From Octopus vulgaris (Eukaryota): a stretch of 64,000 nt of DNA. Below are positions 1,593 through 61,820 of this stretch, piece by piece; position 1 is the stretch's first letter, and each line of letters starts with the position of its first letter. The notes under the pieces are model-generated. The model was not told the origin of the DNA, did no database searches, and saw only the letters and a list, made by a program, of their open reading frames with translations. The translations under genes and the position numbers were made by a program. The DNA is taken from contig OX597823.1 in the NCBI GenBank assembly GCA_951406725.2, positions 103,168,001 to 103,232,000 of the forward strand. The letters run 5' to 3'.

Positions 1593-1983
1593 CAGAACTT
1601 GAGATATTCATACAACTGTACATACCATATATGGTATACACATAAAGAGTTCCTGGAGGCATGAACATAGCTTCAGTCCGTTTTGTTCTTCTATTGTTGT
1701 AAGAATGGGAACATGCATCTTCAATGCCACAGTATGCTTCTGTTTCCACTATTTTACCACAAACCTGAGAGCCATCATCGAATGCTCGTACAATATACTT
1801 GCCAAGAAGAGCTCTGCTAAGTTCTACACATTCTTTTTGGTAGAAAGTGCCTATAAGCCTAAGGCATGGATCAAACAGTTTTTCAATGCTTGAAGAACTT
1901 TCCTCCTTGTTTTGTTTGGCAAAATATTTACAAGTGGTTATTTCAGAATCTTTATGCTCAGCTTGTCTCTTTTTTGATGCCAT
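1593..1983 (-). CDS. MPG: DNA-3-methyladenine glycosylase (MPG/AAG), first coding exon; gene continues left of the window
   Basis: Translation has the AAG motifs LSRALLGK, GKIVETEAY, SHSY..RRTKRTEAMF, PGTLYVYTIYGMYSCMNISS. Acceptor tttAG at 2000-1999 follows a pyrimidine tract; donor G|GTAAG at 1593/1592 (phase 1). The ORF-track tail 1540-1592 is intron read-through. Confidence 0.95.
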
Positions 1984-2348
1984 ATTTCTTTGCTTTCACT
2001 AAAGACAGCGAGAGATGAAAAGAAAGATATGAGAAAAATGTGAAAGAGAGCGATTGGGAGGAGATGAAAAAGTAGTGAAGACAGATACACACACATAGGT
2101 AATATATGATATATCGTTTATTTTTGACAAGTTTTAGCCATTGGACTGAAGCTATGCAGGGGCACTGCCTTGAACAGTCTTAGTTGAACAAGCTGACACC
2201 AGTACTAAATTTTTTAAGACAAATATATATTCTATCACTCCACTTTTGCTGAACCACTAAGTTATGGGTTACAGGGATATAAACCAAAATTGGTTGTTAC
2301 GTGGTGGTGGACAGGGTAAACACAAACACTAAGACACACTCACATATG

Positions 2349-2384
<36 letters not shown>

Positions 2385-2424
2385 CTAGACTACCTGTGGC
2401 CTGTTGGATCACCAATAGTTAAAG

Positions 2425-2880
2425 ATACCCCAAAAAAGTGTATCTTGGGAGCCCATGGTCCGATTCATGGAAAACTTGTTTTATTCCATTTGTATTCACA
2501 TTTCTATGGTACCTTACTTTCAAAGCATTTTCCCCATTATGCGCTGGTTTAACTATTTATAAAGGTATCCGAAAAAACTGTGTATCTCGGGAACCTATGG
2601 TCTGATTTACGCGAAATGTGTTTTATTCTGTTTGTATTCACATTTCAATGGTACCCTACTTTCAAAGTATTTTCCCATTATGTGCCGGTTTAGCTGTATT
2701 AAATTACGGACAAGTGTGCATGCAAGCAAGTATGCAGTCATAAAGGTGCCCCCCAAAAGTGCGTATCTCAGGAACCAGTGGTCTGATTTATACGAAACTT
2801 ATCTTATTCCGTTTGTACTCCCATTTCAGGGGCACCTTACTTTCAGAGTATTTTCCCATTATGTGTTGGTTTAACTATAG
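2425..2880. repeat. Three diverged tandem copies of a unit of about 150-180 bp
   Basis: GTATCT..GGA.CC..TGGTC.GATT...TTTGTA.TC.CATTTC...ACCTTACTTTCA.AG.ATTTTCCCATTATG recurs at about 2440, 2582 and 2762. Confidence 0.85.
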
Positions 2881-3534
2881 AAACTATCTTAATTTTGTTA
2901 AATATAGCTATTTGTCTGTTCCATTTTCAATCCTTACAATGTTCCTTCCTTATATAAAATATGACAATGAGTGTCATTGCCATACAAGTGATCTTTGCTT
3001 CCAATCTTCTGTCTGACCCATGCAATTATGTATTATTTAAGGGAAAGAAATTTTTAGCTGTTATTTCTAGCAGATCAAGCAAGCACACAGAAGTCCCCTC
3101 AAATATTTCAGGCACAAATTCGATTGTGACCGTATAAAACTATCATTTACACCAAAATATAAGCATTACCCTCAATTACAACAGTTGACAATAATTAAAA
3201 GTCATTAACTATACGGTAATAAGGAAATAAAAAAATGGCTCTTGTTAATTTGACAGCTATTATTTTTGCTTGTTTGTAAAGTTAGGTTTAAGATAAGTGT
3301 AGTTTTGGTGCCTGAGGCTTTTATTGTTAAAGGAGAATGTGAGGTCTTTATGTAATTAGTGTTGAATATGTCTAAAAGTTTAATTTCAGGTAATTAAAAT
3401 GTCAAACCTTATCATACATACATACATACACATTTGTATCAGCCTCTGTGTGTGTGAGAGATAGAGAGATAGATAGACAGAGAGATAGAGATAGGGATAG
3501 AGAGATAGAGACAGAAAGTGATAGATAGATAGAT

Positions 3535-3595
<61 letters not shown>

Positions 3596-4099
3596 AGCTA
3601 ATTTTATTTGGCCAGTAATATCTTACAAAATTACACAAACACACCATACAGATACAGAGATGCAGTCACTCTCTCTGCAAGAAATATCAGTCAAATCATT
3701 CTCAAAATCACAATCTAACATCTTAAAAACAAAGTGATACAGTGGACACTGTTGTCCTGGATACCCCGCCCCCGCCAAAAAATCTGATGAGCATGCACTA
3801 CATGCCTGTATTCTAGGCGTAACAGCTGGAACTGATGCAACCTACTAGTGCAAAAATTTTCACATATGCACAGGATGGGGGTGGTGTCACCTCCCACCCT
3901 AAGGATTTTGCCCATGTGACATTAGTTTTGGTGGGAAAAAACGAAGTCGGATACTTATTTCTAGCAGATCAAGCAAGCACACAGAAGCCCCCTCAAATAT
4001 TTCAGGCACAAATTCGATTGTGACCGTATAAAACTATCATTTACACCAAAATATAAGCATTGAATAAATAGAAAAACAAGAAATCTTCCATTAGCAATT

Positions 4100-4189
4100 T
4101 ATCTGAAGAATTGCTAATGGGAGATTTCTTATAAGTTTTTCTACATGTATATCAATCTAACTCATATTGGTGAAGAAACATACGTAATA
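4100..4189 (+). ncRNA. Degenerate type-I hammerhead ribozyme
   Basis: TAT-CTGAAGA-[TTGCTAATGGGAG...CTCATATTGGTGA stem]-GAAA-CATACG-TA-ATA. Stem I is only 3 bp, and there is an adjacent inversion at 4069-4143. Confidence 0.5.
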
Positions 4190-4938
4190 TGGAATAAACA
4201 TTATTATTTTGACTGGCATTCGTTGCTAGTGGAGCGCTAAGAGTACCATAGGAGTGAGATCGTTGCCAGAGCAACAAGCTGGCCTCTGTGCCGATGGCAT
4301 GTTAAACACACCATTTGAGGGTGATTGTTACCTGCGTCACCTTACTAGCACTTGTGTTGGTGGCACGTGGAAAAAAAAAAAACATTCGAGCGAGGTTGTT
4401 GCCAGTGCCGCTGGACTGGCTCCTGTGCAGGTGGCACATAAAAAGCACTATTTGAGTGTGGCTGTTACCAGTACCACCAAACTGGCCCTCGTGCCGGTGG
4501 CACATAAAAGCACCCACTACACTCTCAGAGTAGTTGGCGTTAGAAGGGCAATCAGCTGTAGAAACTCTGCCAGATCAGATTGGAGTCTGGTTCGCCAGAC
4601 CTCAGTCAAATCGTCCAACCCATGCTAGCATGGAAAGCGGATGTTAAATGGTGATGATTATGGCTTGGTTCCATCCCAGGCCACAATAACAAAGTCCACC
4701 TGTCACACTTCTCAGTCCATCATCATTGCCTTGAGGTCCCAGATACATTCCAGGCCAGTGTCTGCAATCAAGTTGTTGATGTGTGATGATGCTTCCCTCT
4801 TCTTACATCACCATGAAGTGGGTTCCACAAGAATAATTTGGATGCTTCCAGCAGAGGATGGCACACACAGTGACCTGATAGTCACAGCTGTGTTTGCCCA
4901 ATCTTCTCATTAACTTTTTGCAGGTCTCTATAAAAGCA

Positions 4939-5434
4939 ACCTATTTCTTTACTACCCACAAGGGGCTAAACATAGAGTGGACAAATAAGGACAGACAAAG
5001 GGATTAAGCCAATTACATCGACCCCAGTGCGTAACTGGTACTTAACTTATCGAACCTGATAAATTAAGGCGGCAAGCTGGCAGAAACGTTAGCACGCCGG
5101 GCGAAATGCGTAGCCGTATTTCGTCTGCCGTTATGTTCTGAGTTCAAATTTCACCGACGTCGCCTTTGCCTTTCATCCTTTCAGGGGTCGATAAATTAAG
5201 TACCAGTTACGCACTGGGGTCGATGTAATCGACTTAATCCATTTGTCTGTCCTTGTTTGTCCCCTCTGTGTTTAGCCCCTTGTGGGTAGTAAAGAAATAG
5301 GTACTTAATTTATCAACCCCGAAAGGATGAAAAGCAAAGTCGACCTCGGCGGAATTTGAACTCAGAACGTAACGGCAGACGAAATACATCTACGCATTTC
5401 GCCTGGTGTGCTAACGTTTCTGCCAGCTTGCCAC
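4939..5434. mobile_element. Nested SINE pair: plus copy 5068-5300 inserted in a minus copy of the same family; more copies at 40331-40458(+), 41217-41447(+), 45799-46216(-, tandem), 51462-51690(+)
   Basis: GGCGGCGAGCTGGCAGAAACGTTAGC head, GAGTTCAAATT B-box, CCTTTCATCCTTTCGGGGTCGATAAATTAAGTACC core. GGTACTTAA.TTATC is duplicated around the insert. Confidence 0.88.
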
Positions 5435-5865
5435 CATCTCTATAAAAGCAATCATTTATCATATGCTGCTGCCATTTCACATTTAGGGTCATATGTAACA
5501 TCCTTGTGTAACATCCATTTAGTCTGTTTGATAATTTCTGTCTCAGTGTCCATGTTTTACTGTCACATAATAGCACTGATTTGATTGTAGCAAATTTTCC
5601 AGTTTTCTCTTTTAATACGCAATTACTTTGCAAAAAGTACTTTCTAGTATTTAACAGCATTCTTCAATGTTTCCAACTTTGATATGGATCATAACATCTA
5701 CGGATATACTTTGGAGAACTAGAAAATGCAGATATGCTTCATGAGAGCACAACTTGCACTATAACTCTATCTACATACTATATATAATACTAGCAGAAAT
5801 ACCCGGCATTGCTCAGGATTACAATGGCATAGTTTGTATATATATTACAATTATGTTGAAACAGT

Positions 5866-6155
5866 GGAGGCGCAATGGCCCAGTGGTTAGGGCAGCGGAC
5901 TCATGATCACAGTTTCGATTCCCAGACCGGGCGTTGTGTGTGTTTATTGAGTGAAAACACCTAAAAGCTCCACGAGGCTCTGGCAGGGTGTGGTGGCAAC
6001 CCCTGTTGTACTCTTTCGCCCCAACTTTCTCTCACCCTTTCTTCCTGTTTCTTGAGTAATGCTGCGATGGACTGGCATCCCATCCAGCTGGGAGGAACAC
6101 ACATGCCACAGAAACCGGGCCCATGAGCCTGGCTAGGCTTGAAAAGGGCACATAA
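5866..6155 (+). mobile_element. tRNA-derived SINE (third family)
   Basis: TGGCCCAGTGGTTAGG A-box and GTTTCGATTCCC B-box followed by a non-tRNA body. Confidence 0.7.
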
Positions 6156-7061
6156 ATATAAAAAATATGTTGAAACAAGTGATGTAGGAAAGTGAAGCAT
6201 TGACGAGAAAACATTTGTGGAGTAAATGATGGGCTCTGTTTGGAGGAATTCAGGCCCTAATCTGTCATGGAAAATTGGAGTTGTGGGGTAAGTGATTTTT
6301 GAATGCATTGAAAAGCTGTCAGTGGATATACTCTCCTTTGTGACGGTTGGGACTGCATCTAGCATGACCCATCGCATGGTTGACAGTCGAATGAATGTAG
6401 GTGTACATTCCGCAAATGGGCTACAATGGGAGATGGCAACGGGAAAGTGAACTGTTGCAGAAAGCGAAGGGTTGACATTGGATTGCTGGTGTGGCTGTGG
6501 AATAAGAAACATAAACTGAGCCACAGACAAACATTCATATACAAAATGTGATGATACTCTCATACATATAGTAAGACAGACACACACAGACATACATAGC
6601 TTTTCACCTCACTGGTAGTGGTGGTATAAAATGTCCTTTACTATCGTGTACATATTGAATGTGCAAACACACACACAGACACATACACACTCATATAAAA
6701 TGTCCTGTACTATAGTTGACAAGAAAGATTATTTCTATGAAATGAAAAAAAAATATCATATGTTGACATATATATGATTTATAATTCTCCTTTGACATAA
6801 AACAATGGAACCTTTGTAAGGTGCAGCATTAAATTTTGTTTCGAATATCTGTTCTTTAATATTATTATATTTGATTTGATGGAAGGATGTTTTTGGACTT
6901 CCAAACATTTCCAGTGAATAAAAAAAAAGGTATGTCATGAAGGTCTAATAGGGGAAAAAAGTTATTAATAATGTGGCAGCAGTCTTCTGAGAATTTATAC
7001 AGAAATACATGACCCTTGTTAACTGGTCTGGAACCAAGAATGCTGGAAAATTGGTTGTGTG

Positions 7062-7131
<70 letters not shown>

Positions 7132-7308
7132 GACTGTACAGACAGCGTGTGTGTAGATAAATTGTAAGTTCACAAACATTGTAGTCTTGCTGCGTAAATA
7201 ACCAGTTTCGAGTGTTCACTGGTTTAGGCCTTCAGAGAGAAGCAACAGTTTAGAGTAATGAGCAACGAATCCAGTTTTACTCATTTGCATATCCGTACAT
7301 TCACTTAC

Positions 7309-8891
7309 TTTGTGTATTAAATAACTAAAATACTAAATATACTGATATATAAATGCGTAAAATCGGCGCCTGTCACTCAAAGTATTTTTGATAAGTAGCT
7401 CAAATCTGCATTCTCATTCTCTGGAGGAGGCCAGCTCCAGTGAATACAGTTAAGATGGTAATAACCTGTCAAAAATAGTTGAGATTAGGTTCGTCCTAGA
7501 AACAGAGAGAGCCCTGCTACTTAATCACAACATACCCCCACTCATTCACTCTCTCTCTTTTTGTTTCTGTCAGTGTCTGTAATTTGTCTCTAATTTAATG
7601 GCATTTTGCGATTCTGTATACATCTATGTGAACTCCTAAATGCTTGTCTATCTATTGAAGTTGCGCTTGACCTGTCCCTGAAACGTCCCCTTATTCGGCG
7701 CGTTTGTGACAAGAACAAAGGATTTTAAGTGACAGAACATCTCTTCGGCATTTCGCATCGTCTTCGATGTTGCCTCTCATGCTTCTGTGATAAGAACCAG
7801 GTTCTACAAGTCGAGGGTCAGTTAAGATGTCTTCATTTTTCAATTTGTGATCTTATGCATGTTAGAAATCAGCTATGGGTAATAGAATCGGAATATTCAT
7901 CCGTTGATGGTTAAAGGAATAAGCACCAGTTAAGTTGTGAGTGAAATCATCTATCAGATGTTATTGTGTCTAAGATTAAGATTAGTTTTAGGCCGGTGGA
8001 TAGCAAAACTAGCAGAACAGTAAACAAAATGCTCTGTCATTTTATATTCTGAGTTCAAATCCTTTCAGGAAAGCTGTACATTTCATCCAACGCCGCAGTT
8101 TAATTAATTGTTTCTTTCTAACAAGATTTCTGGCCTTGTGTTTGTGTTACAAATCGTTATTATTTTTCCAAGTAAATCAATGTAAGATCTTTTGTTAGTT
8201 TCAGAAGGGATGCGAGAATCATGTGCACAGCCTTTTATTCTAGACCAAAACAAAAACATTTAAAAAAGATATTATCCAACATTCAACGATAAAAACAAGA
8301 TAAGCCTAAATTAAAATTAAAATCAACAAGTTAATAGGAAATTACATCAGTATTTAAGAAGCTCACACGAGTAAGTTCCTTCCGTGTATGGAAATGCCTT
8401 CAAGGAGTAACTTAAATACTGATCCAGCAATCATCAGTTTCAAAGGAAACAACTTATTTTATCTCAAATCACACACCGTACCATCCATAAAAAGGTAAAA
8501 TATATTGAGTAATATAATTCGTGGTACACACTGTCTAAAAAAAGTGACAAGATAGTTAAGACTGGAATGCTTTTAATTATAAACCTGACTAAGATCAATG
8601 AAGGATTCAATATCTACCGCAAATTTTTATCGGGAGACTTAATCTGGCAACCGGTTTAAGACGACCACATGGTCATAATCCCTGGTTGCCATTAGCTGAG
8701 TTCAATCTGTTTCAAACAATCGGACAAGTTCTACTAGTCATTGTGGCGCTGAAAAATGGTCCATGAAGTTGTTTTTTTTAATTTTTAACGACCATATTAA
8801 GACGTTTAGCATGTTTTTTTTCTATCTATTTACATATATATATGGAGCAATAAACGGAAATTTGACTCTCTCTCTCTCCATACAAACACAC

Positions 8892-8926
<35 letters not shown>

Positions 8927-9543
8927 CAGTCAAATTAAATGGACAGTAGTCAAGTAGATGTAGGATATCGTGAAATGAGTCAGTGAGAGAGCCACTACTT
9001 GTCCGTTATGCTAGAAATAGCAGCTAAATCTTCCTCGAATCCAGCACTTATATTAAAAAAGGGATACATTGAATAGCCTAGTCGTATTATTGAAAGGGGA
9101 ATGTCAGCTGTAAATGTTTCGATTAAGGGCATGCCCAGTCACAGAATGACAGTTGACATCGGGTTAAAAAAAACAAACAAATGTATTAGAAGCAGTACTC
9201 AACAATCGTCTTAAGAATAGTAGTTATTGTAGCGGCAGTTGTAGTAGTGGATGTAGAAGCAGTAATATTGGAACTTGCATGTCAATGAGAGCCCATTGCT
9301 GTCCTGAGATTAATAGATAGTGGGAGGGAGGGTGAGAGAGAGAGAGAGAGACTGAAAGAGAAAGAGAGGGTGGGCGGAGGTGAGAGAGAGAGAGAGAGAG
9401 TGAAATAAACAAGGCGTCACTATTTCCTCGTTAGAAACCCAGTAATGGTTGCTTGCTCTTGTTCACAGCACATTAGATACCTGTTCTAATTAAAGAAAAA
9501 AGAAAAAAAAAAAGGGATAATATTTTTCTCGTCTTTCGCAGAG
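7309..9543. promoter_or_regulatory. Candidate bidirectional promoter region with putative non-coding first exons of MPG (minus, donor at 7308) and iRhom (plus, donor at 9544)
   Basis: Outward-facing consensus donors: AAA|GTAAGT on minus at 7309/7308 and GAG|GTAAGT on plus at 9543/9544. The interval has few recognisable transposons and several CpG-containing motifs. Both first coding exons start with acceptors, so upstream UTR exons are required. Confidence 0.45.
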
Positions 9544-10426
9544 GTAAGTCTATTGTCTTTCGTTTCCACCCAAATTACTTTCTAATGTCCCGATTTATCA
9601 CAAATCTTTCATTATTACCTTAGTTGAATTAAATAGCGGTAAACTTTCCTTCACTGCCTTTGTTATAATTGATAAAGGTAAACTTCCTTAAAATGTTTTA
9701 GTTACTGATAGAAGTATAAATCAGACTTTTTATGTTTTAGAAACCATATCTGGAAATGTGCAGGTGAGCTTAGGAGATATTACAATAATTAGAAACGACC
9801 TTTTTAGAGTTGAAATACCTGATTTCTCCCCACTTCCTCTTTACATGTATCAACAAAACCCTCTTGGCTTGGATATACTTTTTAACTAAAGGCCGATTTA
9901 TTAAATGACCAGTAATTATCTCGGTCATTCTTTCTCATGTATAAATTGAAACCAATAAGTAATTAATAAATTACTTAAATTGTATTAGTTTCGGTTCTTC
10001 ATACCAATGTATATCTAGTTTTTCTCCAGGTTGCTAGCTTATTTTCATTTAGTCCTAGGCCAGCTCTAATTGACGAAACGTATGATCAATGGTGAGCCTG
10101 CCAATCGTGCCCATCCCATTTTAGCAATAGAGGTAAACATTAAAGTAAACCGAACAATTACCCCTAAATTGTTTACTAATAGCGGCCTCTCCATTTTGGA
10201 TAATGATAGAGGCAAACTTTCCTCTCCTCACATGATAGATTTCTTTAAAACATGGTATCTTATTAAACTCATCCACTGATCACATAAGCACAAAACATAT
10301 ATCGCCACACAACCTAAAGAATGTTGGATTTCCTTACTCATCTCTACTCTTTTCTTTCTCTCTCTATGTGTACAAATACATTGATACATACATACATACA
10401 TACACACATACGTGTGTATGTATCCA

Positions 10427-10467
<41 letters not shown>

Positions 10468-11335
10468 AATGCATATATTTTTTTTATTAATCGAGATCGG
10501 ATTGTTTCATGTACTGGAACGAAACTCTCGACCTTTGAGTCACCGTAACGTCTACTGATTATTAATAAACATCAATATATATATTCTCATGTTTTGAATC
10601 ATTTTCCTGTTTGCATCACCAAACACCACACACACACACACACACACACACACATGCATGTATGTTTTTATGTTCAGTTATATATATATAACAAAAAACA
10701 ATTTTTCATTAATCAGAAGGGTTACTCTATACTTTTGTAGAGTACAAATTTAATTATTCTTAATATTAATTGGATAGTGACTTCGAAGTTTCGGGCAGCT
10801 AAATCATCGTCGGACTGTATAATAATATTGAGGGTGAGGAGTGAATGAGCGCACAAAAGCGAGAAACTCCAAGTAGCACCAAAGTGAATCATCAACTTCT
10901 GTGTCTTTGTGTGTGCAAATAAATACTCACATACATACATATGCCTCACATCTCTCTCTAACACACACACACACACACACACTTACACACATGTATGTAT
11001 GTGTGTATATATATATACATACACATTTGAAAAACATTTTGAAGTGGTGTATTTTTGAGTGGGGTGCAAAAGGAAGTCTTGTCATATAGTTGGTGATATC
11101 ATATAGTAAGTAGGTGGGAAATTTAATCAAGCGAAAGAAAGTTTTTTAGTACTGATAGGTAAGAATGAAATTAATATTTAATACAAAGTTGAGTGTAAGT
11201 TGCCACTCGGAGTCCCCGTTCGCGATTCTCAGGCGACTTGTTGTTACTTGAGGGTTCGGGATTGTGTGTGTATGTAGGTGTATTTTTTAAACATCACGAA
11301 ATTTGAAAATAAGTTCTTTCACGAAGTTGCTCAAA

Positions 11336-11668
11336 TACATATATACATACATACATGCACACACACATACATACACACGTACATACACACATACATACAT
11401 ATACACATACATACACACATGCATTCATTCACACATACATACATACATTCACACATACATACGTTCATACACACGTACATACACACATACATGCATACAT
11501 ACACACATACATGCATTCACACATACATATATACATTCATACATACATACATACATACATGCATTCACACATACATACATACACACGTACATACACACAT
11601 ACATACACACATACATACACACATACATACACACATGCACGCATTCACACATACATACATGGATACAT
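11336..11668. repeat. (TACA/CACA)n compound microsatellite
   Basis: Directly visible. Confidence 0.95.
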
Positions 11669-13178
11669 GCAAGTTTACAAAATTAAAATTTGTTACATTC
11701 ATATTTGAAATCGCCAGACCGAATTCGTAGTCTAAGACACTGCGTCATGATATTGAGTCCTTTATTTAGTTCCGCTACCTTTGTTCCCACGAACATGTGC
11801 ACCATCCTTTATATTTATTTCTAAAGCTATGGTATCGTAAACAACACATAACTTAATATATAATAAACTTGAAGGGCGTACTTCACTTAATTAAACTTAA
11901 TTTCTAAAATGGAATATGTCTGGGGAAAAGGAAAAGACGTGCGTATGTTAGGTATTACTTTCATGAAAAGGTTCCTCCAGAATCGTGGATCAGTTGCCTG
12001 CATATAGATATACATAGCTGTGTATGACTTCATACATTGTATATATCCAATATATGAATATGCTTATGTGCACAATGATTATTTTAAACTCTAAAAGGCT
12101 TCCTGTTTTCAAATATGTATTTTCCTTTGACCATTTCTACTGTATATATTCACAAAATTCTGTTTTACACACATAACCCCCGCCCATCCCCGATTAGCCG
12201 ATGTTACATCATTTACATCCATGCTATAAATATTTTGATCATGACATGTGAGCCTTGTCACGGCTCTTTAGTTTATTCCAACAACCATTGTGGATATTTG
12301 ACCATGCTATAGCAATGTTTTGTGTTGGTGTTCGTATTTGTTTTACAAAATGTATCGGTGACTCAGCTTGTTGCCTTTTTCATTGAAGACTTGCATCAAT
12401 AATGTCTGAGTATAAACGGATCCAAAGATATTACAAACCGTTTCTTAATGAATCATACAAATGTCTTTTCTCTCTTTCTTGATTTACCAATATGTATTTC
12501 CCGAAAATAATCTCTGACAGTTTCAAATATAATTAATTAATTATTTAAACCAAAACTAATTCTAATTAACTACACAATAAATTAAAACCTTGCAAAAATA
12601 TACAACATAAACATAATTACCTCACTTAGCGTCTAATTACTTGGCCTGTTAAATTCATTTATAATGTTTATATAAAAATGTGCATGACAAGTATTCATTT
12701 CATATATGTATGTATTTTATACAATGTCCAATACTTGTGTGTGTGTATGTGTAATTATATAGTCGTTTAAGAATCCATAAGTCAGGACAAAGGCACTCGT
12801 TTGTGGATATATTTAATCAACGTATATTTATTTTCCATTCTGCCATTTCTGAGAAGCAGTTATTAGAAATTTGTCTGATTATCTAATATCAAGTGTGAAA
12901 CCAATTGCTTAATGGATCTATAATACTGTATACACCATTTAACGTCCGTTTTCCACGCTGGCCTGGGTTGGACAGTTTGACAGGAGCCGGTAAGACTGGG
13001 GGCTGCACCAGGTTCTGTTGTCTGTTCTGGCATGGTTTTCTACGGCTGGATGCCCTTCTTAATGTCAACTACTTTACAGAGTTCACTGGGTGCTTTTTAC
13101 ATGGCACCAGCAGCAGTGCTTTTTATGTGGCACCATACACTGATTATATTATATATGTATATATATATATATATATAT

Positions 13179-13419
13179 AAACCACCTTTTATCAATTCAA
13201 AATGAATGATTAAATTACACCATCTAGAAAATTACAAATAATAGAAAAGTTAAAATTAAAATAACAATTAAAAAGTAAAGATTAAGTAAATTACAAGAAT
13301 AATATAATGTATATAATTGGTACTTTTTAATTGTTATTTTAATTTTAACTTTTCTATTATATGTAATTTTCTAGATGGTGTAATTTAATCATTCATTTTG
13401 AATTGATAAAAGGTGGTTT
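13179..13419. repeat. Near-perfect 99-bp inverted repeat with 43-bp spacer
   Basis: 13179-13277 is the reverse complement of 13321-13419, with one mismatch seen. Confidence 0.92.
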
Positions 13420-13553
13420 TTTTCTAATATTCTATATATATTATATTGTGTGGAATTTAATTTAGTATTTCTAAATTGAATTCTTTTTCCTTGTAAGTTT
13501 GGATTTTATTCCCTCAAATAATGATTATGTATAATATATATATATATCTGTAT

Positions 13554-13592
<39 letters not shown>

Positions 13593-13671
13593 GTATATCA
13601 TATATATATATATATCTGTATATCATATATATATATCTGTATATCATATATATATATATCTGTATATCATC

Positions 13672-13702
<31 letters not shown>

Positions 13703-13744
13703 TATCTGTATATCATATATATATATATATATATATATCTGTAT

Positions 13745-13786
<42 letters not shown>

Positions 13787-13911
13787 TATCTGTATATCAT
13801 ATATATATATATATATATATCTGTATATCATATATATATATATATATCTGTATATCATATATATATATATATATCTGTATATCATATATATATATCTGTA
13901 TATCATCTCTC

Positions 13912-14288
13912 TCTATATAAACGGCAGTTTGTCTGTGTGTGTTTCTGTGTGTCTGTTTGGTTGTACCCTCACCCTGACCACTGCTTTCAACCGATTCTGA
14001 TGAAACTTGACACACACATAGCCCAATGTCATAATTCAAAACTAACGCAGCGAAAATTTTGAAAAGTTCCCCCAGTTCTGAAAAAAATCGATAAATTCGA
14101 CATGGGGTCGAGAATCAGAAACACAAACCACAGACTGTCTAGGGGACGCAACTCGACCTTTTTTAACTCAAAAAAAATTTACCATCATTTTTTTCCCATT
14201 ATTTTGCTATTTTTTGGCTATAACTCTCTAAAAATGCTTTATAGTTATTTCCCTTACAAACCTGAGCAACGCCGGGCGATACTGCTAG
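13912..14288 (+). mobile_element. Non-autonomous Helitron-like element
   Basis: 5' TC start, subterminal hairpin CCTGAGCAACGCCGGG, 3' CTAG|T end, inside a (TA)n array. Confidence 0.72.
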
Positions 14289-14698
14289 TATATATATATA
14301 TATATATCTGTATATCATATATATATATATATCTGTATATCATATATATATATATATCTGTATATCATATATATATATATGATATACAGATGGCTTATCT
14401 GGAAAAGCAGCTTAGACCCTACTACATGTCTAAATACAAGGACAGAGCTTTTCGGATCATGCCCACATGTGACTAAGTTTCTGTTACGTTTTTGGTCCCC
14501 TAAAGAAAACAGATAGAACATGCTTTCTATGTTATGTCCCAAGAAGAATTTATATATTTTTATATATTTTTTATGTATTTTTATATAATTTTTATGATGA
14601 AAAATGCGAGCGATGTATAAGTACGCAGGCAAGCAGAGTTATAACAGAGTAATTTCCCTTTATTTAACGGTATTTTTTCATAACGTTTTCAAATAGCC

Positions 14699-14761
14699 AG
14701 ATAACCGAAGAGATGGTGTTGTGGATTTCCACTTCGGCATCTGAAACTCAGAGTTTTATCT
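14699..14761 (+). ncRNA. Variant hammerhead-like fold (U4C core, extra U before GAAA)
   Basis: AGATAA-CCGAAGA-GATG...CATC-T-GAAA-CTCAGAG-TT-TTATCT. 6-bp stem I, near-palindromic stem III, GUU triplet. Confidence 0.45.
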
Positions 14762-14889
14762 TGACTACCGAGTAATGTAACATATTGTATAGATAAATTT
14801 CCTCTATTTACATAATATTGAGGTCTCTTTCTTTCTTTTGTTATCTTACCGTTTTATCAATATATATATATATATATATAAATCTGTAT

Positions 14890-14934
<45 letters not shown>

Positions 14935-15209
14935 CAAAATTAGAGTATGGAGAAACATACTTAAATCAATAAAACATCAACTATCCGATGATACCCAATC
15001 AATACTTTAATACACCATTACATATGAGTAAAGGCATTATACAAAATGAGATATACAGTAATAGTAAAAAGATAAAGAGATATAAGTAAAAAATTTCAAA
15101 TATAATATGCAATTAAATCAAAACTGACAGCTGTTTCGGCAGTGAGGGCAGTCGCAGTATATTGGATATATATTATCCCATGGTGGGTTGAATTTTCAAC
15201 CCCTATCTC

Positions 15210-15251
<42 letters not shown>

Positions 15252-15558
15252 GTATATCATATATATATATATATATCTGTATATCATATATATATATATA
15301 TATCTGTATATCATATATATATATATATATCTGTATATCATATATATATATATATCTGTATATCATATATATATATATATATATATGTATATTATATATA
15401 TATATATATATGTATATCATATATATATATATATATATCTATATATCATATATATATATATCTGTATATCATATATAGATATATATCTGTATATTATATA
15501 TATATATATATCTGTATATCTATATATATATATATATATATATCTGTATATCTATCTA

Positions 15559-15627
<69 letters not shown>

Positions 15628-15729
15628 GTATATCATATATATATATATATCTGTATATCATATATATATATCTGTATATCATATATATATATATATATAT
15701 ATCTGTATATCATATATATATATCTGTAT

Positions 15730-15760
<31 letters not shown>

Positions 15761-16166
15761 CTGTATATCATATATATATATCTGTATATCATATATATAT
15801 ATATGCCTGGCCCCGTGCCGGTGACATGTAAAAGCACCATCCGTTCGTGGCTGTTTGCCAGCTCTGTCTGGCACCTGTGCAGGTGGCACGTAAAAAGCAC
15901 CCACTACACTCACGGAGTGGTTGGCGTTAGGAAGGGCATCCAGCCGTAGAAACACTGCCAGATCTGACTGGGCTGATGAAGCCTTCCAGCTTCACAGACC
16001 CCAGTTGAACCGTCCAACCCATGCTAGCATGGAGAACGGACGCTAAATGATGATGATGTGATGATGATATATATATATATATATATATATATATCTGTAT
16101 ATCATATATATATATATATATATATATCTGTATATCATATATATATATATATATATATATCTGTAT

Positions 16167-16203
<37 letters not shown>

Positions 16204-16228
16204 GTATATCATATATATATATCTGTAT

Positions 16229-16267
<39 letters not shown>

Positions 16268-16292
16268 GTATATCATATATATATATCTGTAT

Positions 16293-16331
<39 letters not shown>

Positions 16332-16933
16332 GTATATCATATATATGTGTATGTGTGTGTGTGAATATGTGTCATACCTCACCTTTAACCGTCACTTATT
16401 ATCTACGGTCAATTCCCCACACCCATCATGACTCAATTACTATAGCCACCACTTCATACATCTGACTTCCATCTCTGTCTCCTTCCACTCTTCCACCCAG
16501 CACATCATCTCTCTATTTTCTGATCTATCTACAGGTTTATTATACTACTACTACTACTACTACTCTACAACCCTTTCTGAACTGTCACTTAACTTGTATC
16601 CTCTCATACTTGAGCATCTCAAATCCTGACATCAAGCTACTTCTCCCTCGACTGCAATCCCATTCAGGCGAGGGAGTTTCTTTTACTTTGTATTGCAAGT
16701 TATATGGGGACCTCACTAACACCAATGTCATGAAGAAGAGCACCCAATACACAGTGTAAGAGACTAATGTTAAGAAGAGCATCCAGTCATAGAAACCATG
16801 TTAAAGCAGACATCGAAGCTTGACTGGCCTGCAGCTAAAATGATTCCTGTCATACCATCCAACCCATGTTAGCATGGAAGAATGGAGGATGTATATTAAA
16901 TGATGATAATATGTATGTGGGTCTGTGTCTCTA

Positions 16934-18561: not shown

Positions 18562-18601
18562 ATACACCAAGGAAATTTATGACTTGTCAGATACCCTAGA
18601 G

Positions 18602-26910: not shown

Positions 26911-26946
<36 letters not shown>

Positions 26947-47005: not shown

Positions 47006-47239
47006 ATCACCAAAAACTGCTCCTGTGCAGGATAAACCACCATCAGCAGTTTCTTATGATACCGTTGATGCACCTATTGGGCTTAACAAAATTAAAGATA
47101 CTGTTATTTCATCAATGTTAAAAAGACCTCACAAGAGACGCTATGGTATGGGTCTCTTGGGTTCCATGCTGCACCAAAGAGTAAAAACTCGCTTACCAGC
47201 TGATGTCAAGAGTCAACTTGATGAGTTAGATAATTACAG
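47006..47239 (+). CDS. RHBDF1: iRhom coding exon 5
   Basis: ...KRRYGMGLLG...DVKSQLDELDNYR, the conserved pre-TM1 iRhom segment. Acceptor tgtAG, donor AG|GTAAGT. Confidence 0.92.
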
Positions 47240-47665
47240 GTAAGTAAAAGAAAAAATAAAATAAAAAATATGTTGTTTGTTAGTGGTCTCCACCATTGAA
47301 CAAGATTGTTATATATGTTTATACTTCAATAACATCATGTTATAATCTCTCAGATTATTCTGTTTGTCAGATATTTGTATGTTTGAGTATTATGCTTTCA
47401 ACCATCTTAATCATGAAAATCATTGTTTAACGTCCACTTTTTCATGGTTGCTTGGGTCTGATGGAATTTGTTGAAGCAAATTTTCAGTGGCTGGATGTCT
47501 TTCTGTCACCAACCTTACTTATTTCCAAGTACGGTAATATTCTCCATGATCAGACATGTTTTCATGGAAGTTTGGAAACAAAAGATACCACTTGTATGAT
47601 AGTGATGTGTGTTTACAACTATCACATGAAGTCAAGGCAAGGAGACAATAACACACACACGCATA

Positions 47666-49915: not shown

Positions 49916-50462
49916 CATTTCTGTATTTAATATTTTTCTGTATGTATATTATTATCAAGATGTGTAAGTTGTTAATACAACTTTGGGCTGCAAAGGAAAT
50001 GTTATAACACATTGAAGATAAATTTTAATGAATGGTTGTGTGGTTAAGAAATTTGCTTTCAAACTACATGGTTTCAGGTTTGACTCCACAGCGCAACACC
50101 TTGGGTTGGGCAAGTCACTGGTCTTCTACTACAGCTTTGAGTTAACCAGTTCCTTGTGCATAAGGTTTGGTAAAACGTTTCTGTTCTTATGTGGTAAACT
50201 TTAATCTGTCATCTGGTTTGGCACCACCGTCAGGCTCTTGAGTGCTTTTAGCAGAGGTTCACTCTGTCACAAGCATTCAGGCCAAGTGTCTAGTCTTAGG
50301 AGAACTTCCTACCACCAATCCTGTTGGCCCTGAAAAGAGCCAAAGAACCTTTGACTAAACCATTAAAAAAAGCAAACAAAACAAAACAAAAAAACCCCCC
50401 ACCATACTTAGCTCTGCTGTATTCTTATACAATAAGACATCTTATTTATTTTCTTTGTTCAG

Positions 50463-50574
50463 GCCTTATTTCACATACTGGGTCACCTTTGTACAGATTA
50501 TTGTCTTCCTGGTCTCCATTTCTGTTTATGGTCCTGCTCCTTTTGGATTTATGGAATATGCTAAATCAAAACCT
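50463..50574 (+). CDS. RHBDF1: iRhom coding exon 6 (first transmembrane helix)
   Basis: RPYFTYWVTFVQIIVFLVSISVYGPAPFGF, the iRhom TM1 signature. Acceptor ttcAG, donor CCT|GTGAGT. Confidence 0.95.
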
Positions 50575-52688
50575 GTGAGTATCTTACATGTCAATCTAGA
50601 AAAACAAGTGAACAAAAAAAAAAAGCCAAACTTTCTTTTGATAGTTTAGAATTTTTTTTGTTATTTATTTTAAAGTATGGTACTTAGTTATCATTGTTAC
50701 CTTGCTTATATTTTGGTTCAAGTTTTCTTGATGGTAAGAGTTGAGTGCATTTAAATTATAGATTCTTTTCAAAGGTCTCAGATCCTGCATCATATTGTAT
50801 GAGGTTTTGACTTGGAAGTTGGAACTGGATGGTCTTTCTGTTGACCACTGGCTTCATAATATTATTACAAGTTAATACTTGTGACATTAATTTATTTTAT
50901 TAATTATAGAGCATGTTTATTAATAAGAATAACAAAGCTTTTTTTTTTTGCTGTAAAGTTTACTATAAATTTGTGTGTGTGTGTGTTTGTGTGCATGTGT
51001 ATTACATGCTTATTTTCAAAAACGGAAAAAGAGCAAAAATCACACATAATACACATTTATGTATTATATAAAAGGAAAATAAATTAAGAGGAATAATTCA
51101 GGAGCACCAATTATTCAACTTTTGGATAAAATTAAGGCAGGTGTACTGAATGTTTTGAAATTTCCCTCTGGATTAGAGCAAAGATTCTCAAGAAGGATGG
51201 GAGATCATTTCAAGAAATTAAGGACACATTCACCAATGAAAGAAATGACAAAGGACTGAGATGATTGATGATTCACTGTGCATGAAAAGAGCCATCTATC
51301 ACAAGAATAACGATGTCCTAAATGCAATCTATGGAAGCTTGTAACCCATTCTAAGACCATGTCAAGCATTTCCTTGTACTTCATTCTCCTAACACTTAGC
51401 CTCCTTCTCCATATTATATCTCTATGGCACTACTCAGTGGCAATAATTGCTTATGTTTGAAGGCGGCAAGCTGGCAGAATTGTTAGCACGCCGGACGAAA
51501 TGCTTAGCAGTATTTCGTCTGCCGTTACGTTCTGAGTTCAAATTCCGCCGAGGTTGACTTTGCCTTTCATCCTTTCGGGGTCGATAAATTAAGTACCAGT
51601 TACGCACTGGGGTCGATGTAATCGACTTAATCCGTTTGTCTGTCCTTATTTGTCCCCTCTGTGTTTAGCCCCTTGTGGGTAGTAAAGAAATTAATAATTG
51701 CTTGAGTACAGAATCAGCGCAGATTACTCCCTCCTCTCACTTTCTGTGCACTGAGACTTACCTCCTCCTCCTCTTGAATCTTTACTTATTCTCATTATCT
51801 TCCTTTCCTTTTCCCATGCTATTCTGGCCTCCTAGCCTTCAGATATCCATCTCCTCCACCATACTCCATCTTATCACCTCATATGCCTGCTATCATTCTC
51901 AATACCCTCTCATATCCACCATCATTAAACACACATTCATGTACCTACTTATCTTCCTCTCCATCACTCCTTCACCTTGCACATCCTCCTCCTCCCTTAT
52001 GGTCTATCCTCCAACTGGTGTCTTCCTCAGATTCTCCCTCTCTATTCTCATATTTCCTAGCAATCACACTTTCACCTTTGCTTATTATTCACCACATTCA
52101 CCTCTACTCTCATCTCTAACCATCTTCTAATCTCCCCTCACATTCTTATGAAACTACCTACCATTTTCTTCTTCTTGATCCATTTACCATATTCTTTCTT
52201 ATGCTCACCTTTTTGTACTTTCAAAGTTTGCTCTGGCACTTTGTCACTACCATTTTTATCTTCTTCATCTTCTTCCCAGTTTCTACTACCAACCTTATAT
52301 AATGTTGGGTAGCCATGTACTTCCTCTATGGCAAGATACCTGTGCTTGTCTCTCTACTGTACATTAGCCTCTCAGCATCTGGCAAAAAGCTACCTTCTCT
52401 AATACCTGACACTTAATCATGGGGGTTTTTCTCTCTTCTGTTCTTTTTCTGTTTTGCAAACTACTTGGTGACTTTTACATGCCAGAGGCATGTAAGCAGT
52501 ACCCAGTACACTCTATATGATGGTTGGTGTTGGGAAAGGCATCCAATAACAGAAAACCCATCAAAGCTAATGCTGGAGCTTGGCACCCCTCCCCACTGTG
52601 GATTACCAGGTCCTATTAAACCATTCAACCCATGCCAGCATGGAAAACTGATGCTAAGTGACGATGAGGATATATATATATATATAGA

Positions 52689-53543: not shown

Positions 53544-53618
53544 GTTCTGATGCCAAGCCTGGCAATTGAATATAAGGAATACCGAGATGTTGCTAATATG
53601 TGGTTTGGTCCTCGTCAG
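53544..53618 (+). CDS. RHBDF1: iRhom coding exon 7
   Basis: VLMPSLAIEYKEYRDVANMWFGPRQ (cf. ENFWIGP). Acceptor ttcAG, donor CAG|GTAACA, 75 nt. Confidence 0.9.
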
Positions 53619-58351: not shown

Positions 58352-58362
58352 CCAATGTGCTA

Positions 58363-58478
58363 TGCTTACTGCACCTAGGTTTCCCAAGCGGTCACCCATC
58401 TAAGTACTGACTAGGCTTGACGTTGCTTAACTTCGGTGATCAGACGAGAACCGGTGCTTTCAATGTGATATGGCCATA
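58363..58478 (-). pseudogene. 5S rRNA pseudogene (near full length)
   Basis: Minus strand reads ATGGCCATATCACATTGAAAGCACCGGTTCTCGTCTGATCACCGAAGTTAAGCAACGTC...AGTACTTAGATGGGTGACCGCTTGGGAAACCTAGGTGCAGTAAGC, a metazoan 5S sequence with several substitutions. Single copy, no oligo-T terminator. Confidence 0.9.
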
Positions 58479-58496
58479 TATATATATATATATATA

Positions 58497-60386
58497 TAAC
58501 GGGAAGGTTTACGAAAATAAACAAAAGAGGAAGGCAGGTGGAATACAAACAAACAAATGTATTAGTATGGCGCTCAGGAATAGAAATAGAGCAAGTCTTT
58601 TACGTTTTGAGCCTACGCTCTTCCACAGAAAGATACATAGAAAAGAAACAAGGAGAGAAAAAAATGCGTGTAGGAGCTAATGGTCCATCATGGCGTTCTG
58701 ACTTCAGGTAGAAGTCAGAGGTCAGGCGTTAGATGCTAGAGGGATAGTAGGGGAGATAACAGGGTCAAGTGACTTCACCCCAACACGAAGGTGCGTGTGT
58801 GTATAAGAGAGTATGTATGTGCGTGTGAAATAGGGCTGGTGGTCTGGACGTGTGTATGTATGTATGTGTGGGTGTGGAGATATGGGGATGGGTGTGTGGG
58901 TGGTGTGTTGTGATATGATATGTGTATGTGTAGGTGTAAAGATGTGGGGATAGGTGTGTGGGTGGTGTGTTGTGATGTGATGTGTAATGTCATATGGTGT
59001 AGTGTAGTGTGGTGTGATGTTGTGGGGAGGTGGGGGGGCGAGAGTGGGGAAAGCCCATGCGGGGTGTGGGTTCGGATGGGGTTGGGGTAGAGTGGGGGTT
59101 GTGGAGAGAAGAGAGAGAGGAGGGGGAGGGGAGAGAGGAAATGAGGAGGAGGGAGGGGATGGGAAGAGAAGGGGAGTGAGGGAGCAGAGAGAAGGGGAAG
59201 AGGGAAGAAGAGGAGGGAAAGAGAGTAGGGGTGAAAAGATGAAGGACTGAAGAGAAGTAGGAGTTGGTGGGGTAGGTTAGATGCAAAGGAGGGGGAGAGT
59301 TGAGCCCAAATGGTGTAAAAGAGCGAAGAGAGAAGATTAATCTCTGTTCACGACGCAAGCGGGAATCCGGATGGCCTCTGTGCAAGGACAATCTCAACAC
59401 AGACAGATGTTGCAAGGAGTGACGGTGGAGTGGAAATGGCGTGAGACTGGTGTGTCATTGGCGAGGCGGATGTCTCGGAGGTGTTCCGCAAACCAGTCAG
59501 CCAAGCAGCGTCCTGCTTGTCCGATGTACAGGGAATGGCAGAGAGAGCAGGAGATGCAATAGATGATATTGCTGGAGGTGCAGGTGAAGGAGTCGATGAT
59601 GGGTGCCAGTTAGGAGGGTGGTGTTGGAGAGTTAAGGGCAAGTGCGGCAACGTGGGCGGGAGCAGGGGAACGAGCCAGGTTGGGAGGTAGGGTCAGGGAA
59701 GAAGCTGTGGACCAAGAGGTCTCGTAGGTTATGGGCTCGTTAGAAGGAGGGAAGGGGTCGGTTAGGGAAGAGGTGTGAAGTGGACGGGTCGGACTGGAGA
59801 TGTTGGAAAGCTCGAAGAATGGTGCGTTGGAGAGGTAGGGTGGTGGGGTGGTAAGTGAGGGGAAAAGGGAGGCGGGAGACTGCAGGGCGGGTTCGGGGGA
59901 AGAGAGCAGATGCACGGTCTACGGAACGTGCTCTGGGAAGGGCGGTGTGGATAGTGGTGAGGGGGTATCCATGTAGGATGAAGTGGCGAGCCATGAGTTG
60001 AGACTCAAAGTCATGGTTGTCACTACAGAGCCTACGTAGACGGAGGAATTGGGAATAGGGGATGGAAAGCTTGGTGTGTTTGGGGTGGGAGGAAGAGAAG
60101 TTTAGGTATGAGTGTGAGTCTGTGTGTTTGTAGTGAATGGAGGTGGTAAGAGTGGAGTGATGAATGCTGACCGAAATGTCAAGAAAGGAGACAGAGGTGT
60201 TGGAAATAGTGGAAGTGAAGTGGAGGGCAGGATGGAAGGAATCTAGATGTTCACGGGAGAGTGAAGTGGCATCGATAATGTCGTCAATGTAACGACCGTA
60301 TAGTTCGGGAGTGGGACCAGTGAAACTAGAGAATATTTGGGCCTCAACATAGCCAACGAACAGGTTCGCATAGTTGGGGCCCATTC
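58497..60386 (-). mobile_element. Penelope-like retroelement (RT C-terminal half + GIY-YIG), 5'-truncated and frameshifted
   Basis: MGPNYANLFVGYVE, GRYIDDI, SFLDISV, YKHTDSHSYL..SSSHP, IPYSQFLRLRRLCS; downstream YCISCSLC..LYIGQTGR and RLRREQRLIFSL..P.GLN. Flanked by (TA)n on both sides. Confidence 0.9.
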
Positions 60387-60398
60387 GCGATATATGTA

Positions 60399-60453
<55 letters not shown>

Positions 60454-61658
60454 TTGTTCCCCCCAACATCGCTTGACAACCGATGCTGATGTGTTTACGT
60501 CCCTGTAACTTAGCGGTTCGGCAAAAGAGGCCGATAGAATAAGTACTAGGCTTACAATGAATAAGTCCTGGGGTCGATATGCTCGACTAAAGGCGGTGCT
60601 CCAGCATGGCCACAGTCAAATGACTGAAACAAGTAAAAGAGTATATGTTTATACATGTAAATAGAGAGAAAGCAAAGACGGAAAAATTTTCAGATAATGC
60701 ATATTCAAGTATAAGTATATAGGCATTTATAGATTAATAGAGCAAACTTACACAGTGCAAAAATGTAGAAAATTAAAGGGGAGCAGGTATGGTGGTACAG
60801 GTCCGATAACTGTTTCTGGGGTCTGTAGCTACTTTGTAATGTCGCAGATGTATTTCACAATAATATGCAATCAATAATGGAAGAATATAAACATTGGGTA
60901 GATCCAGCCTTTGTCTTCAAGGTGGAGAAATCAAAATCTAACATTTCAAATGATAATGCAGGGAAATTTAAAGGTAAAATGGGTGAAGAGTTGTGAGTGG
61001 AGGGAGGAAGCAGTTGTGAGTGGAGGGAGGAAGTAGGTAGCTCGTTTGATTCTTGCACTGAGTGGAGTGTTGTGTCCTTGAGTAGTGTGCTTACTTTCTG
61101 CTTGTTTACTCAGTTGAGCACATATACTCATGGCAGCTGGAGAAGGAGCTTAATCCTTTAACACACTGACATTCTTTTGAACGACTCTTGTTCACTTTCC
61201 AGGTACATTACTGTATATACTTTATATGCACTTTTGACAAGTTGTGGTGCACCTGAGCATTGTATACAATAATTTCATTATTATTATGTTCAGTTGCCTT
61301 AAACACCAAAGAAAGTGGGATAAAATCTGATAAATTTTAATGGGCTGAAGATTTAGATTTTACCTTTTTTTAATTGGTAAATATAAGCACCTATCAGTCA
61401 CACATGCACCCACTTACCTGCCCGATGGTTGAGTGGCCAGTGTCTATGATAATACTCAGTATTACTCTTTGTAGACAATAATTCTAATAGATATTCATAT
61501 ATGAGAATGGATTGTTAATAAGAATCTGTTATCTCCACAACAGTACTTTCTGATCAGAAACAGAGAAGCAACTCTTAAACCACACTGTACAGCCCTGTTA
61601 TTTTATCAAAGTCTAATATTTTGTTTACCTCTAACAGTTATTTTTGTATTTTTCCTAG

Positions 61659-61820
61659 GCTGATCTCATTCACTTGGGGGCCAAATATTCTCCATGTATG
61701 CGAAAAGATAAGAACATATTGGATGCTTTGGAAAAAGATCGAAACCTTGAGCGCGAATCAGCTTGTTGTGTCCGTAATGATGGATCCGGTTGTTCCCAGA
61801 TGACTGAAAACAGATGCAGT
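61659..61820 (+). CDS. RHBDF1: iRhom coding exon 8 (start of Cys-rich luminal iRhom homology domain); gene continues beyond the window
   Basis: ADLIHLGAKYSPCMRKD...SACCVRNDGSGCSQ closely matches the iRhom IRHD motif. Acceptor cctAG, donor AGT|GTAAGT. Confidence 0.96.

Follow-up and report, generated by a model that had tools for sequence, protein, structure and literature searches.

The alpha-globin locus serves as a textbook example of how genes are controlled over long distances, and the unrelated genes RHBDF1, MPG and NPRL3 stand at its vertebrate flank. A locus of Octopus vulgaris raises the question of whether this arrangement is older than the neighbouring globin genes, and what has kept it together. 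The window analysed, i.e. the whole stretch of 64,000 nucleotides, is C10:103168001-103232000 on the plus strand of a 2.8-Gb octopus genome in 227 contigs. Its preliminary description had placed MPG on the minus strand and iRhom on the plus strand as adjacent, divergent genes, which is borne out by domain matches, protein mapping and strands. Together with its left flank, the window holds NPRL3 (plus strand), MPG (minus strand) and a single iRhom gene (plus strand) as consecutive genes in the vertebrate order. Most likely, they form one ancestral bilaterian block that was inherited and not re-assembled.

NPRL3 and MPG are convergent, with 14.2 kb from stop codon to stop codon, and MPG and iRhom are divergent, with 27,071 bp from ATG to ATG. 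Within the window lie MPG coding exon 1 and the first 8 of the 14 iRhom coding exons. The span that had originally been noted, 1593..61820, starts at the splice donor of MPG exon 1 and ends with the eighth iRhom coding exon. Reading frames were intact in all three genes, and genome searches found one intact locus for each. According to Pfam and solved-structure matches, each protein appears to belong to its own human family, and the families are mutually unrelated. The best matches of the locus proteins were named Octopus sinensis or O. vulgaris and showed 98-100% identity, which confirms the mollusc origin that the preliminary description had assumed. The guanine-cytosine (GC) content of the window was 27-48% in 4-kb windows.

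Flanks of 100 kb on each side were scanned as stop-to-stop open reading frames (ORFs), followed by another 100 kb on the left. Before scanning, 218 of the 1,239 ORFs were removed as low-complexity; nine border-crossing ORFs lay outside the scan. The spacer and flank scans were blind to exons under ~45-60 amino acids and to genes without a Pfam family. Contig evidence was taken from four sequencing runs of four studies, whose RNA nature was guessed; statements on joints and loose ends refer to those listed. Uncovered parts of the spacer and low-depth unspliced contigs (e.g. 7346-9184) are uninformative either way. Coordinates without a contig name refer to the window, and negative values lie to its left.

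MPG was recognised from a minus-strand frame at 1543-1995, which matched positions 2-82 of Pur_DNA_glyco (Pfam PF02245) with an E-value of 3.8e-31. The frame of exon 1 also matched human AAG (E 2.9e-27), with an identical IVETEAY stretch; VETEAY is the active-site stretch of MPG, in which the glutamate has a role. A whole-genome family search located the rest of the domain 3.5 kb further left, at C10:103165797-103166138 (flank ORF L007:7773-8132). Coding exon 2 spans C10:103165773-103166115, outside the window on its left side. The two-exon model joins 1983->1592, with a GTAAG donor, to -1885->-2227, with a ctgcag acceptor, and encodes 245 amino acids. This complete protein covered positions 2-181 of the 181 positions of PF02245 (E 4.4e-61) and was identical in 244 of 245 residues to a protein named Octopus sinensis DNA-3-methyladenine glycosylase-like. 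Contig pieces started exactly at 1592 in all four runs. In three of them, the contigs at 1592 carried extra letters absent from the stretch, as expected of spliced messenger RNA (mRNA). The parts of MPG within the window are as follows.

1592..1983, minus strand: MPG coding exon 1, with the ATG at 1983-1981 and a GTAAG donor after 1592; it encodes residues 1-130 including VETEAY.
1984..2313, minus strand: 5' untranslated region of MPG exon 1 in its minimum extent, with contigs unbroken from 1592 to 2175 in one run and to 2313 in another.

The extent of the 5' untranslated region is a lower bound, as contigs cannot define the start site. At C14:79383031-79383393 (plus strand) lies a decayed copy of the MPG exon 1 region with five stop codons (42% identity), the sole other Pur_DNA_glyco match in the genome.

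For iRhom, a 759-amino-acid protein of Octopus sinensis annotated as 'inactive rhomboid protein 2-like' was mapped with tblastn. It aligned in 14 collinear plus-strand pieces between 29055 and 77116. Eight of these exons lie inside the window and six further to the right, up to 77116.

29026..29182, plus strand: ATG-bearing exon with the ATG at 29055, residues 1-43 (tblastn); contigs of all four runs begin matching at 29026.
29618..29948, plus strand: coding exon 2, residues 43-153, 100% identity.
32377..32468, plus strand: coding exon 3, entered by the joint 29948->32377; contig pieces stop at 32468 in three runs, and the tblastn piece overruns into the intron.
41509..41625 (ends approximate), plus strand: coding exon 4, residues 184-222, 97% identity.
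47007..47240 (ends approximate), plus strand: coding exon 5, residues 223-300, 100% identity; juxtamembrane cytoplasmic part with a weak match to human iRhom1/2.
50458..50577 (ends approximate), plus strand: coding exon 6, residues 299-338, with the first transmembrane helix according to the alignment.
53544..53618 (ends approximate), plus strand: coding exon 7, residues 338-362, 100% identity.
61659..61820, plus strand: coding exon 8, residues 363-416, 100% identity; the cysteine-rich iRhom homology domain begins here.

The GT..AG joints 29182->29618 and 29948->32377 were found in contigs of all four runs. Exon 8 matched residues 436-499 of human iRhom2 with an E-value of 3.7e-15, and this homology-domain exon had one match in the whole genome. 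The homology domain was conserved in all 13 aligned proteins, and the octopus protein carried a Rhomboid domain (PF01694, E 2.3e-32). Hallmarks of iRhoms are a rhomboid domain, a cysteine-rich homology domain that separates helices one and two, a long cytoplasmic N-terminus and a proline before the position of the catalytic serine (GPxG). The octopus protein shows these hallmarks, including the proline before the serine position. By sequence, the single octopus gene appears to stand for both RHBDF1 and RHBDF2 of vertebrates; the two are also handled as one bilaterian family in the material used from Simakov 2013. Among the 13 aligned proteins, those of two octopuses and two gastropods, as well as that of a leech, kept the serine as GPSG in the motif before the lost catalytic site (alignment columns 940-945; in the octopus within the last exon, 76673-77116). 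The mussel and priapulid proteins had GPAG, as did all six aligned deuterostomes, i.e. amphioxus, hemichordate, tunicate and vertebrates.

The ATG-bearing exon is not the first exon of the iRhom mRNA, being preceded by a pyrimidine tract and a 'cag' acceptor before 29026. Contigs of all four runs carried 39-173 extra letters 5' of 29026 that occurred nowhere on 16501-36500. Since the exon opens at an acceptor and these 5' letters are unmatched, the first exon is expected further left. A further 5' non-coding exon, at least 173 nt long, was absent from 16501-36500 among the joints listed and from 1-13400 among the pieces listed; 13401-16500 was without contig mapping because of (TA)n arrays.

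Two repeat structures were observed in iRhom introns. A full-length match to 5S ribosomal RNA at 58363-58481 (91 bits) overlaps the start of a 476-amino-acid reverse-transcriptase ORF, 56969-58399, on the same minus strand. This ORF carries a PHD-like finger, and the unit 56969-58481 looks like a 5S-retroelement chimera or the head of a 5S-derived element. A related reverse-transcriptase fragment was found at 49077-49562 (plus strand). The other structure, 62197-62269 on the minus strand, is probably a repeat derived from transfer RNA (tRNA); its tRNA-like match scored 29.9 bits at an Rfam gathering score of 29 bits and was accompanied by no ARAGORN call.

The preliminary description had predicted NPRL3 to the left of the window, convergent with MPG. 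The gene was found there by Pfam, by the mapping of a protein in 12 pieces and by alignment to human NPRL3. In the 150 ORFs closest to the window, HTH_NPRL3 was matched by a plus-strand frame (E 6.9e-14) and NPR3, weakly, by another ORF. A 586-amino-acid protein of Octopus vulgaris, found through the HTH_NPRL3 exon and annotated as 'hypothetical protein', mapped to the plus strand between -45953 and -16382 in 12 collinear pieces, with residues 59-72 and 248-258 not placed. It aligned end to end with human NPRL3 (residues 5-564, E 7.7e-128). It comprised the domain NPR3 (PF03666, E 3.9e-45) and the C-terminal helix-turn-helix HTH_NPRL3 (PF24064, E 1.6e-17). The last exon had one match in the genome. 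Two other candidates were rejected. A whole-genome Pfam search for NPR3 (72 scored of 95,303 candidates) returned only a false poly-Ser/Leu/Lys match on C2, and a weak ABC2_membrane_3 match in another frame of the last NPRL3 exon was dropped.

In the spacer between NPRL3 and MPG, the ORFs of at least 60 amino acids yielded a reverse-transcriptase fragment and no host-gene domain. An overlap of the 3' ends of MPG and NPRL3 was not seen at the coding level, the ends being 14 kb apart. The spacer between MPG and iRhom contains the following features.

2314..29025, no strand: the spacer as a whole, with transposon remnants, repeats resembling short interspersed nuclear elements (SINEs), and (TA)n and 12-mer arrays.
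18919..20861, minus strand: hAT-like transposon remnant with two long ORFs of 250 and 220 amino acids; the first has a weak Dimer_Tnp_hAT match, the second is assigned by position only.
25161..26031, plus strand: fragment of a retroelement reverse transcriptase (Pfam RVT_1, E 5e-11).

The earlier statement that no host gene is recognisable between MPG and iRhom holds after ORF scans, Rfam and ARAGORN searches and an inspection of copy number. None of the 94 filtered ORFs on 2000-29030 (at least 60 amino acids, not low-complexity) showed a host-gene domain in the Pfam scan. The scan yielded one reverse-transcriptase match and three matches below the curated cut-offs (hAT, Atrophin-1, RFX). The 250-amino-acid ORF at 18919-19668 had at least 67 further matches on many chromosomes, and because these were mostly stop-bearing, it was classified as a transposon remnant. 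No RNA gene was found in the spacer with Rfam at gathering scores or with ARAGORN.

Tandem arrays comprised a 12-mer at 11335-11668 and (TA)n at 13526-16346. The whole tract 11335-16346 was AT-rich, with a GC fraction of 0.27 in 12001-16000, up to 290 copies of (TA)n and the 12-mer as an ATAC array. A search for CpG islands as promoter candidates returned repeat-borne windows only. The sole CpG-rich 500-bp window of the spacer, 24401-25200, had a contig depth of 10^4 and was therefore read as a repeat. In all four runs, contig depth summed to between 10^3 and 10^5 at 448-894, 4024-6258, 24505-25171, 27840-28506 and 29841-33175. These stretches are probably very abundant SINE-like repeats, which recur in both spacers and in the iRhom introns.

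The wider neighbourhood was examined on both sides. To the left of NPRL3, 142 ORFs of at least 68 amino acids over 54 kb contained transposon families only. In the next 100 kb (150 of 208 ORFs of at least 70 amino acids scanned), a minus-strand ORF matched Tuberin with an E-value of 3.4e-21. Six collinear Tuberin exons were placed at C10:103008413-103017509 on the minus strand, about -159588 to -150492, and nowhere else in the genome; a TSC2 exon matched residues 792-857 of human tuberin. TSC2 thus lies ~105 kb from the start of NPRL3 and is divergent from it. No host gene was recognised between the two at the sensitivity of the ORF scan. The 5' end of TSC2 is unplaced, as a search with PF11864, presumably the N-terminal family of tuberin, gave no match. 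A weak ABC_membrane match at L028:5120-5389 (23.5 bits, below cut-off) matched no solved structure and was discarded. In human, TSC2 is a 16p13.3 gene, and TSC2 and NPRL3, the latter a GATOR1 subunit, both encode brakes of mTORC1.

The first gene recognised beyond iRhom on the right was LTV1-like, with four Pfam LTV exons on the plus strand at ~96724-102206 (L020:2724-8206). Beyond it, transposons and a SUZ12-like zinc-finger exon ~42 kb further on (L024:9763-9987, minus strand) were detected. Neither LTV1 nor SUZ12 is known as a 16p13.3 gene in human. The preliminary description had suggested looking for SNRNP25 and POLR3K on this side; their domains were not found in 150 of 178 ORFs of at least 72 amino acids over 87 kb, nor in 113 ORFs of 45-71 amino acids in the adjoining 20 kb, and the LTV1-like gene occupies the place instead. 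Two other partners were dispersed, with LUC7 genes on C5 and C9 and Exo70 on C6, none of them on C10. Seven globin loci were found on C1, C3, C11 and C26, and none on C10. The trio held while LUC7 and Exo70 came to lie on other chromosomes, which fits the earlier proposal that the linkage survived the rearrangement of coleoid genomes.

How old, then, is the block? In human, the genes run in the directions -, +, -, with RHBDF1 and MPG divergent, as the preliminary description also stated, and MPG and NPRL3 convergent. The order published for platypus is POLR3K-C16orf33-C16orf8(RHBDF1)-MPG-C16orf35(NPRL3)-globins-LUC7L, and the texts used give the same flank order for cod and mouse. On amphioxus scaffold 17, RHBDF1 (17_000132) and MPG (17_000133) are consecutive gene models in the text used from Wetten 2010 (PMC2975663). 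Supplementary file 7 of Simakov 2013 places the two genes MPG and RHBDF together in ancestral linkage group 5, in species ranging from sponge to human. The probability of finding such an arrangement by chance was estimated by simple arithmetic. Two named genes are neighbours with a chance of ~2/N, where N is the gene number, or roughly 1e-4. For three named genes that are consecutive in a set order and orientation, the chance is ~1/(4N^2), which is below 1e-8 at N ~2e4. Even if all three are restricted to a single linkage group with 1,000 genes, it is still ~2.5e-7. Over ~2e4 human triplets, far fewer than one case is expected, and re-association by chance is therefore very unlikely.

Judging from these gene positions, the block would very likely have been inherited from the bilaterian ancestor, i.e. 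from before the split of protostomes and deuterostomes. It should therefore also be older than the arrival of globin genes beside NPRL3 in vertebrates. The earlier claim that the linkage predates this split is thus well supported, on few lineages, by the order shared with vertebrates, the amphioxus pair and the chance arithmetic. An independent joining of the genes in octopods and in chordates would agree with the heavy rearrangement of coleoid genomes, with their many new neighbourhoods, described in the portion used from Schmidbaur 2022, and the octopus is the only protostome in the comparison. Against it stand three genes in the same order, with TSC2 as a fourth 16p13.3 gene nearby, an expectation of far fewer than one such triplet and the common ancestral linkage group given for MPG and RHBDF in the Simakov 2013 material. 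We regard re-association as very improbable.

A mis-joined assembly, or a pseudogene taken for one of the three genes, would also remove the need for an ancestral block and can practically be dismissed. There was no N in 264 kb of sequence, spliced contigs from four runs of four studies matched both MPG and iRhom, and all three reading frames were intact. In addition, the proteins named MPG and iRhom in a second octopus, O. sinensis, agree in the length of the longest contig given for them, 109,703,381 bases in either case. This was the only species overlapping in both lists, the MPG list containing no further mollusc and no annelid. MPG was also found in Potamilus, Lymnaea and the crinoid Anneissia (HMMER and cluster look-up), species that were not in the iRhom list.

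Several points weigh against an inherited bilaterian block. Its ancestry, well supported as it is, depends on a few lineages, i.e. the octopus, amphioxus (pair only) and vertebrates. The match in orientation to vertebrates comes from general background, the published texts used giving the order only. RHBDF1 and MPG lie on different chromosome arms in Ciona, according to the text used from Wetten 2010 (PMC2975663). In the portion used of the linkage table of Simakov 2013, Lottia is without an MPG entry and its iRhom stands in another linkage group. Neither the NPRL3-MPG-iRhom trio nor any NPR3 block occurs in the part used of supplementary file 4 of Simakov 2013. Likewise, supplementary file 4 of Schmidbaur 2022, with 1,865 cephalopod and 4,998 metazoan block rows, contains none of the trio's gene names or Pfam numbers. 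The absence from both catalogues may mean that the trio is broken, or MPG missing, in many of their species.

Why the block would have persisted is a separate question, and the two leading answers differ little in their plausibility. Our tentative preference is for interleaved cis-regulatory DNA of the bystander type, an explanation that we hold to be possible and short of probable. The preference follows the analogy of the vertebrate locus. Regulatory elements of one gene would be situated inside or past its neighbour, as the alpha-globin enhancers are in the introns of vertebrate NPRL3, and breaking the block would then cost expression. A constraint is suggested by LUC7 (C5, C9) and Exo70 (C6), which left the neighbourhood while the trio stayed. 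It is opposed by both spacers, which tolerate many transposon insertions and simple repeats. These same spacers, with their 14 and 27 kb full of transposon remains and simple repeats, agree with the alternative that the block is ancestral and that nothing holds it, so that it would be a small neutral survivor among a few hundred old neighbourhoods that any genome retains because breaks happened to fall elsewhere. The three products are functionally unrelated, the pair is broken in Ciona and, in the table portion used, apparently in Lottia, and neither of two catalogues requiring conservation in several species contains the trio. All this speaks for neutral survival. Yet the wider neighbourhood with LUC7 and Exo70 was dispersed while the trio held, the order was kept across octopus and vertebrates, and conserved pairs are enriched for divergent orientation and co-regulation, divergence being their commonest orientation, in the text used from Irimia 2012 (PMC3514665). 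Neutral survival thus follows closely behind interleaved regulation, and a shared core promoter is less likely than either.

Such a promoter would be bidirectional and serve MPG and iRhom together, the unplaced 5' exon of iRhom lying beside the MPG start and making the pair unsplittable. The two genes are divergent, the 5' untranslated region of MPG reaches at least to 2313, and the ATG exon of iRhom opens at the acceptor at 29026, with a first exon further left and possibly near MPG. The shared promoter requires this first exon near 2.3-3 kb, which is possible but unsupported. No iRhom contig piece was placed on 1-13400 among the pieces listed, and no CpG-rich window was found near 2000-3500. 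A promoter common to MPG and iRhom would also leave the retention of NPRL3 unexplained, and we consider it unlikely.

Interleaved regulation, as the preferred explanation, can be extended to TSC2, although we find the extension doubtful. TSC2-NPRL3-MPG-iRhom would then be a regulatory neighbourhood of bilaterian age, in which control DNA of the NPRL3 region already acted on the adjacent genes in pre-vertebrate times and which captured the alpha-globin genes later. If so, a far older shared domain would have supplied the globin enhancers of the NPRL3 introns, which would be re-used parts of it, and the position of TSC2 and NPRL3, two brakes of mTORC1, side by side would be part of the same constraint.

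In octopus, NPRL3-MPG-iRhom stands without a linked globin, which suggests that this backbone is the older part, likely of bilaterian age. As the backbone is present without globin, whatever keeps these housekeeping genes together need not involve globin. The octopus can therefore serve as an outgroup for asking whether NPRL3 introns already held regulatory DNA of their neighbours, and why the trio resists separation where the wider neighbourhood was scattered. In itself, the finding is a modest addition that extends to a protostome a pair already reported for amphioxus.

Compared with the vertebrate alpha-globin flank (human 16p13.3, mouse 5'-Rhbdf1-Mpg-Nprl3-Hba and the MC/MN locus of fish), the octopus locus has the same three families in the same order. 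In contrast to it, no globin is linked, LTV1 stands in place of SNRNP25 and POLR3K, and LUC7 lies elsewhere. One iRhom gene corresponds to RHBDF1 and RHBDF2 of vertebrates. The octopus spacers comprise 14 and 27 kb of repeats, whereas the human genes are a few kb apart or overlapping. TSC2 is ~105 kb off in octopus and ~2 Mb from NPRL3 in human. A further comparison concerns bidirectional-promoter pairs, with start sites less than 1 kb apart: MPG and iRhom of octopus are like them in divergence, but their coding starts are 27 kb apart.

In the text used, Wetten 2010 (PMC2975663) takes the amphioxus pair to show what the globin flank was like before vertebrates and argues about chordate linkage groups, not about bilaterian age. 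Amphioxus, a deuterostome, contributes the pair only, with NPRL3 and the directions absent from that text, whereas the octopus, a protostome, contributes the trio. The synteny of Nprl3 and globin has been dated to more than 500 million years, for vertebrates only (Preston 2025). Two blocks in the portion used of supplementary file 4 of Simakov 2013 place the other genes in old neighbourhoods: EXOC7-FOXJ1-RHBDF2 in human, Trichoplax, Nematostella, amphioxus, Lottia and Capitella, and MPG-LUC7L-PDIA2 in human and Daphnia. They are the same class of finding for iRhom and MPG, with partners that differ from those in octopus. The ancestral microsyntenic pairs and genomic regulatory blocks in the text used from Irimia 2012 resemble the octopus trio in that unrelated genes were kept adjacent over bilaterian time. 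Genomic regulatory blocks are recognised by arrays of conserved non-coding elements that extend over a target gene and its bystanders, whereas the octopus trio is known here from gene positions. A full-text literature search, with the tables of Irimia 2012, Zimmermann 2019 and Albertin 2015 outside its scope, gave no report of the trio or of the pair in any protostome. The iRhom-MPG pair of amphioxus and old microsyntenic blocks as a class are already known; the trio, and the occurrence of the pair in a protostome, appear to be new within the scope of this search.

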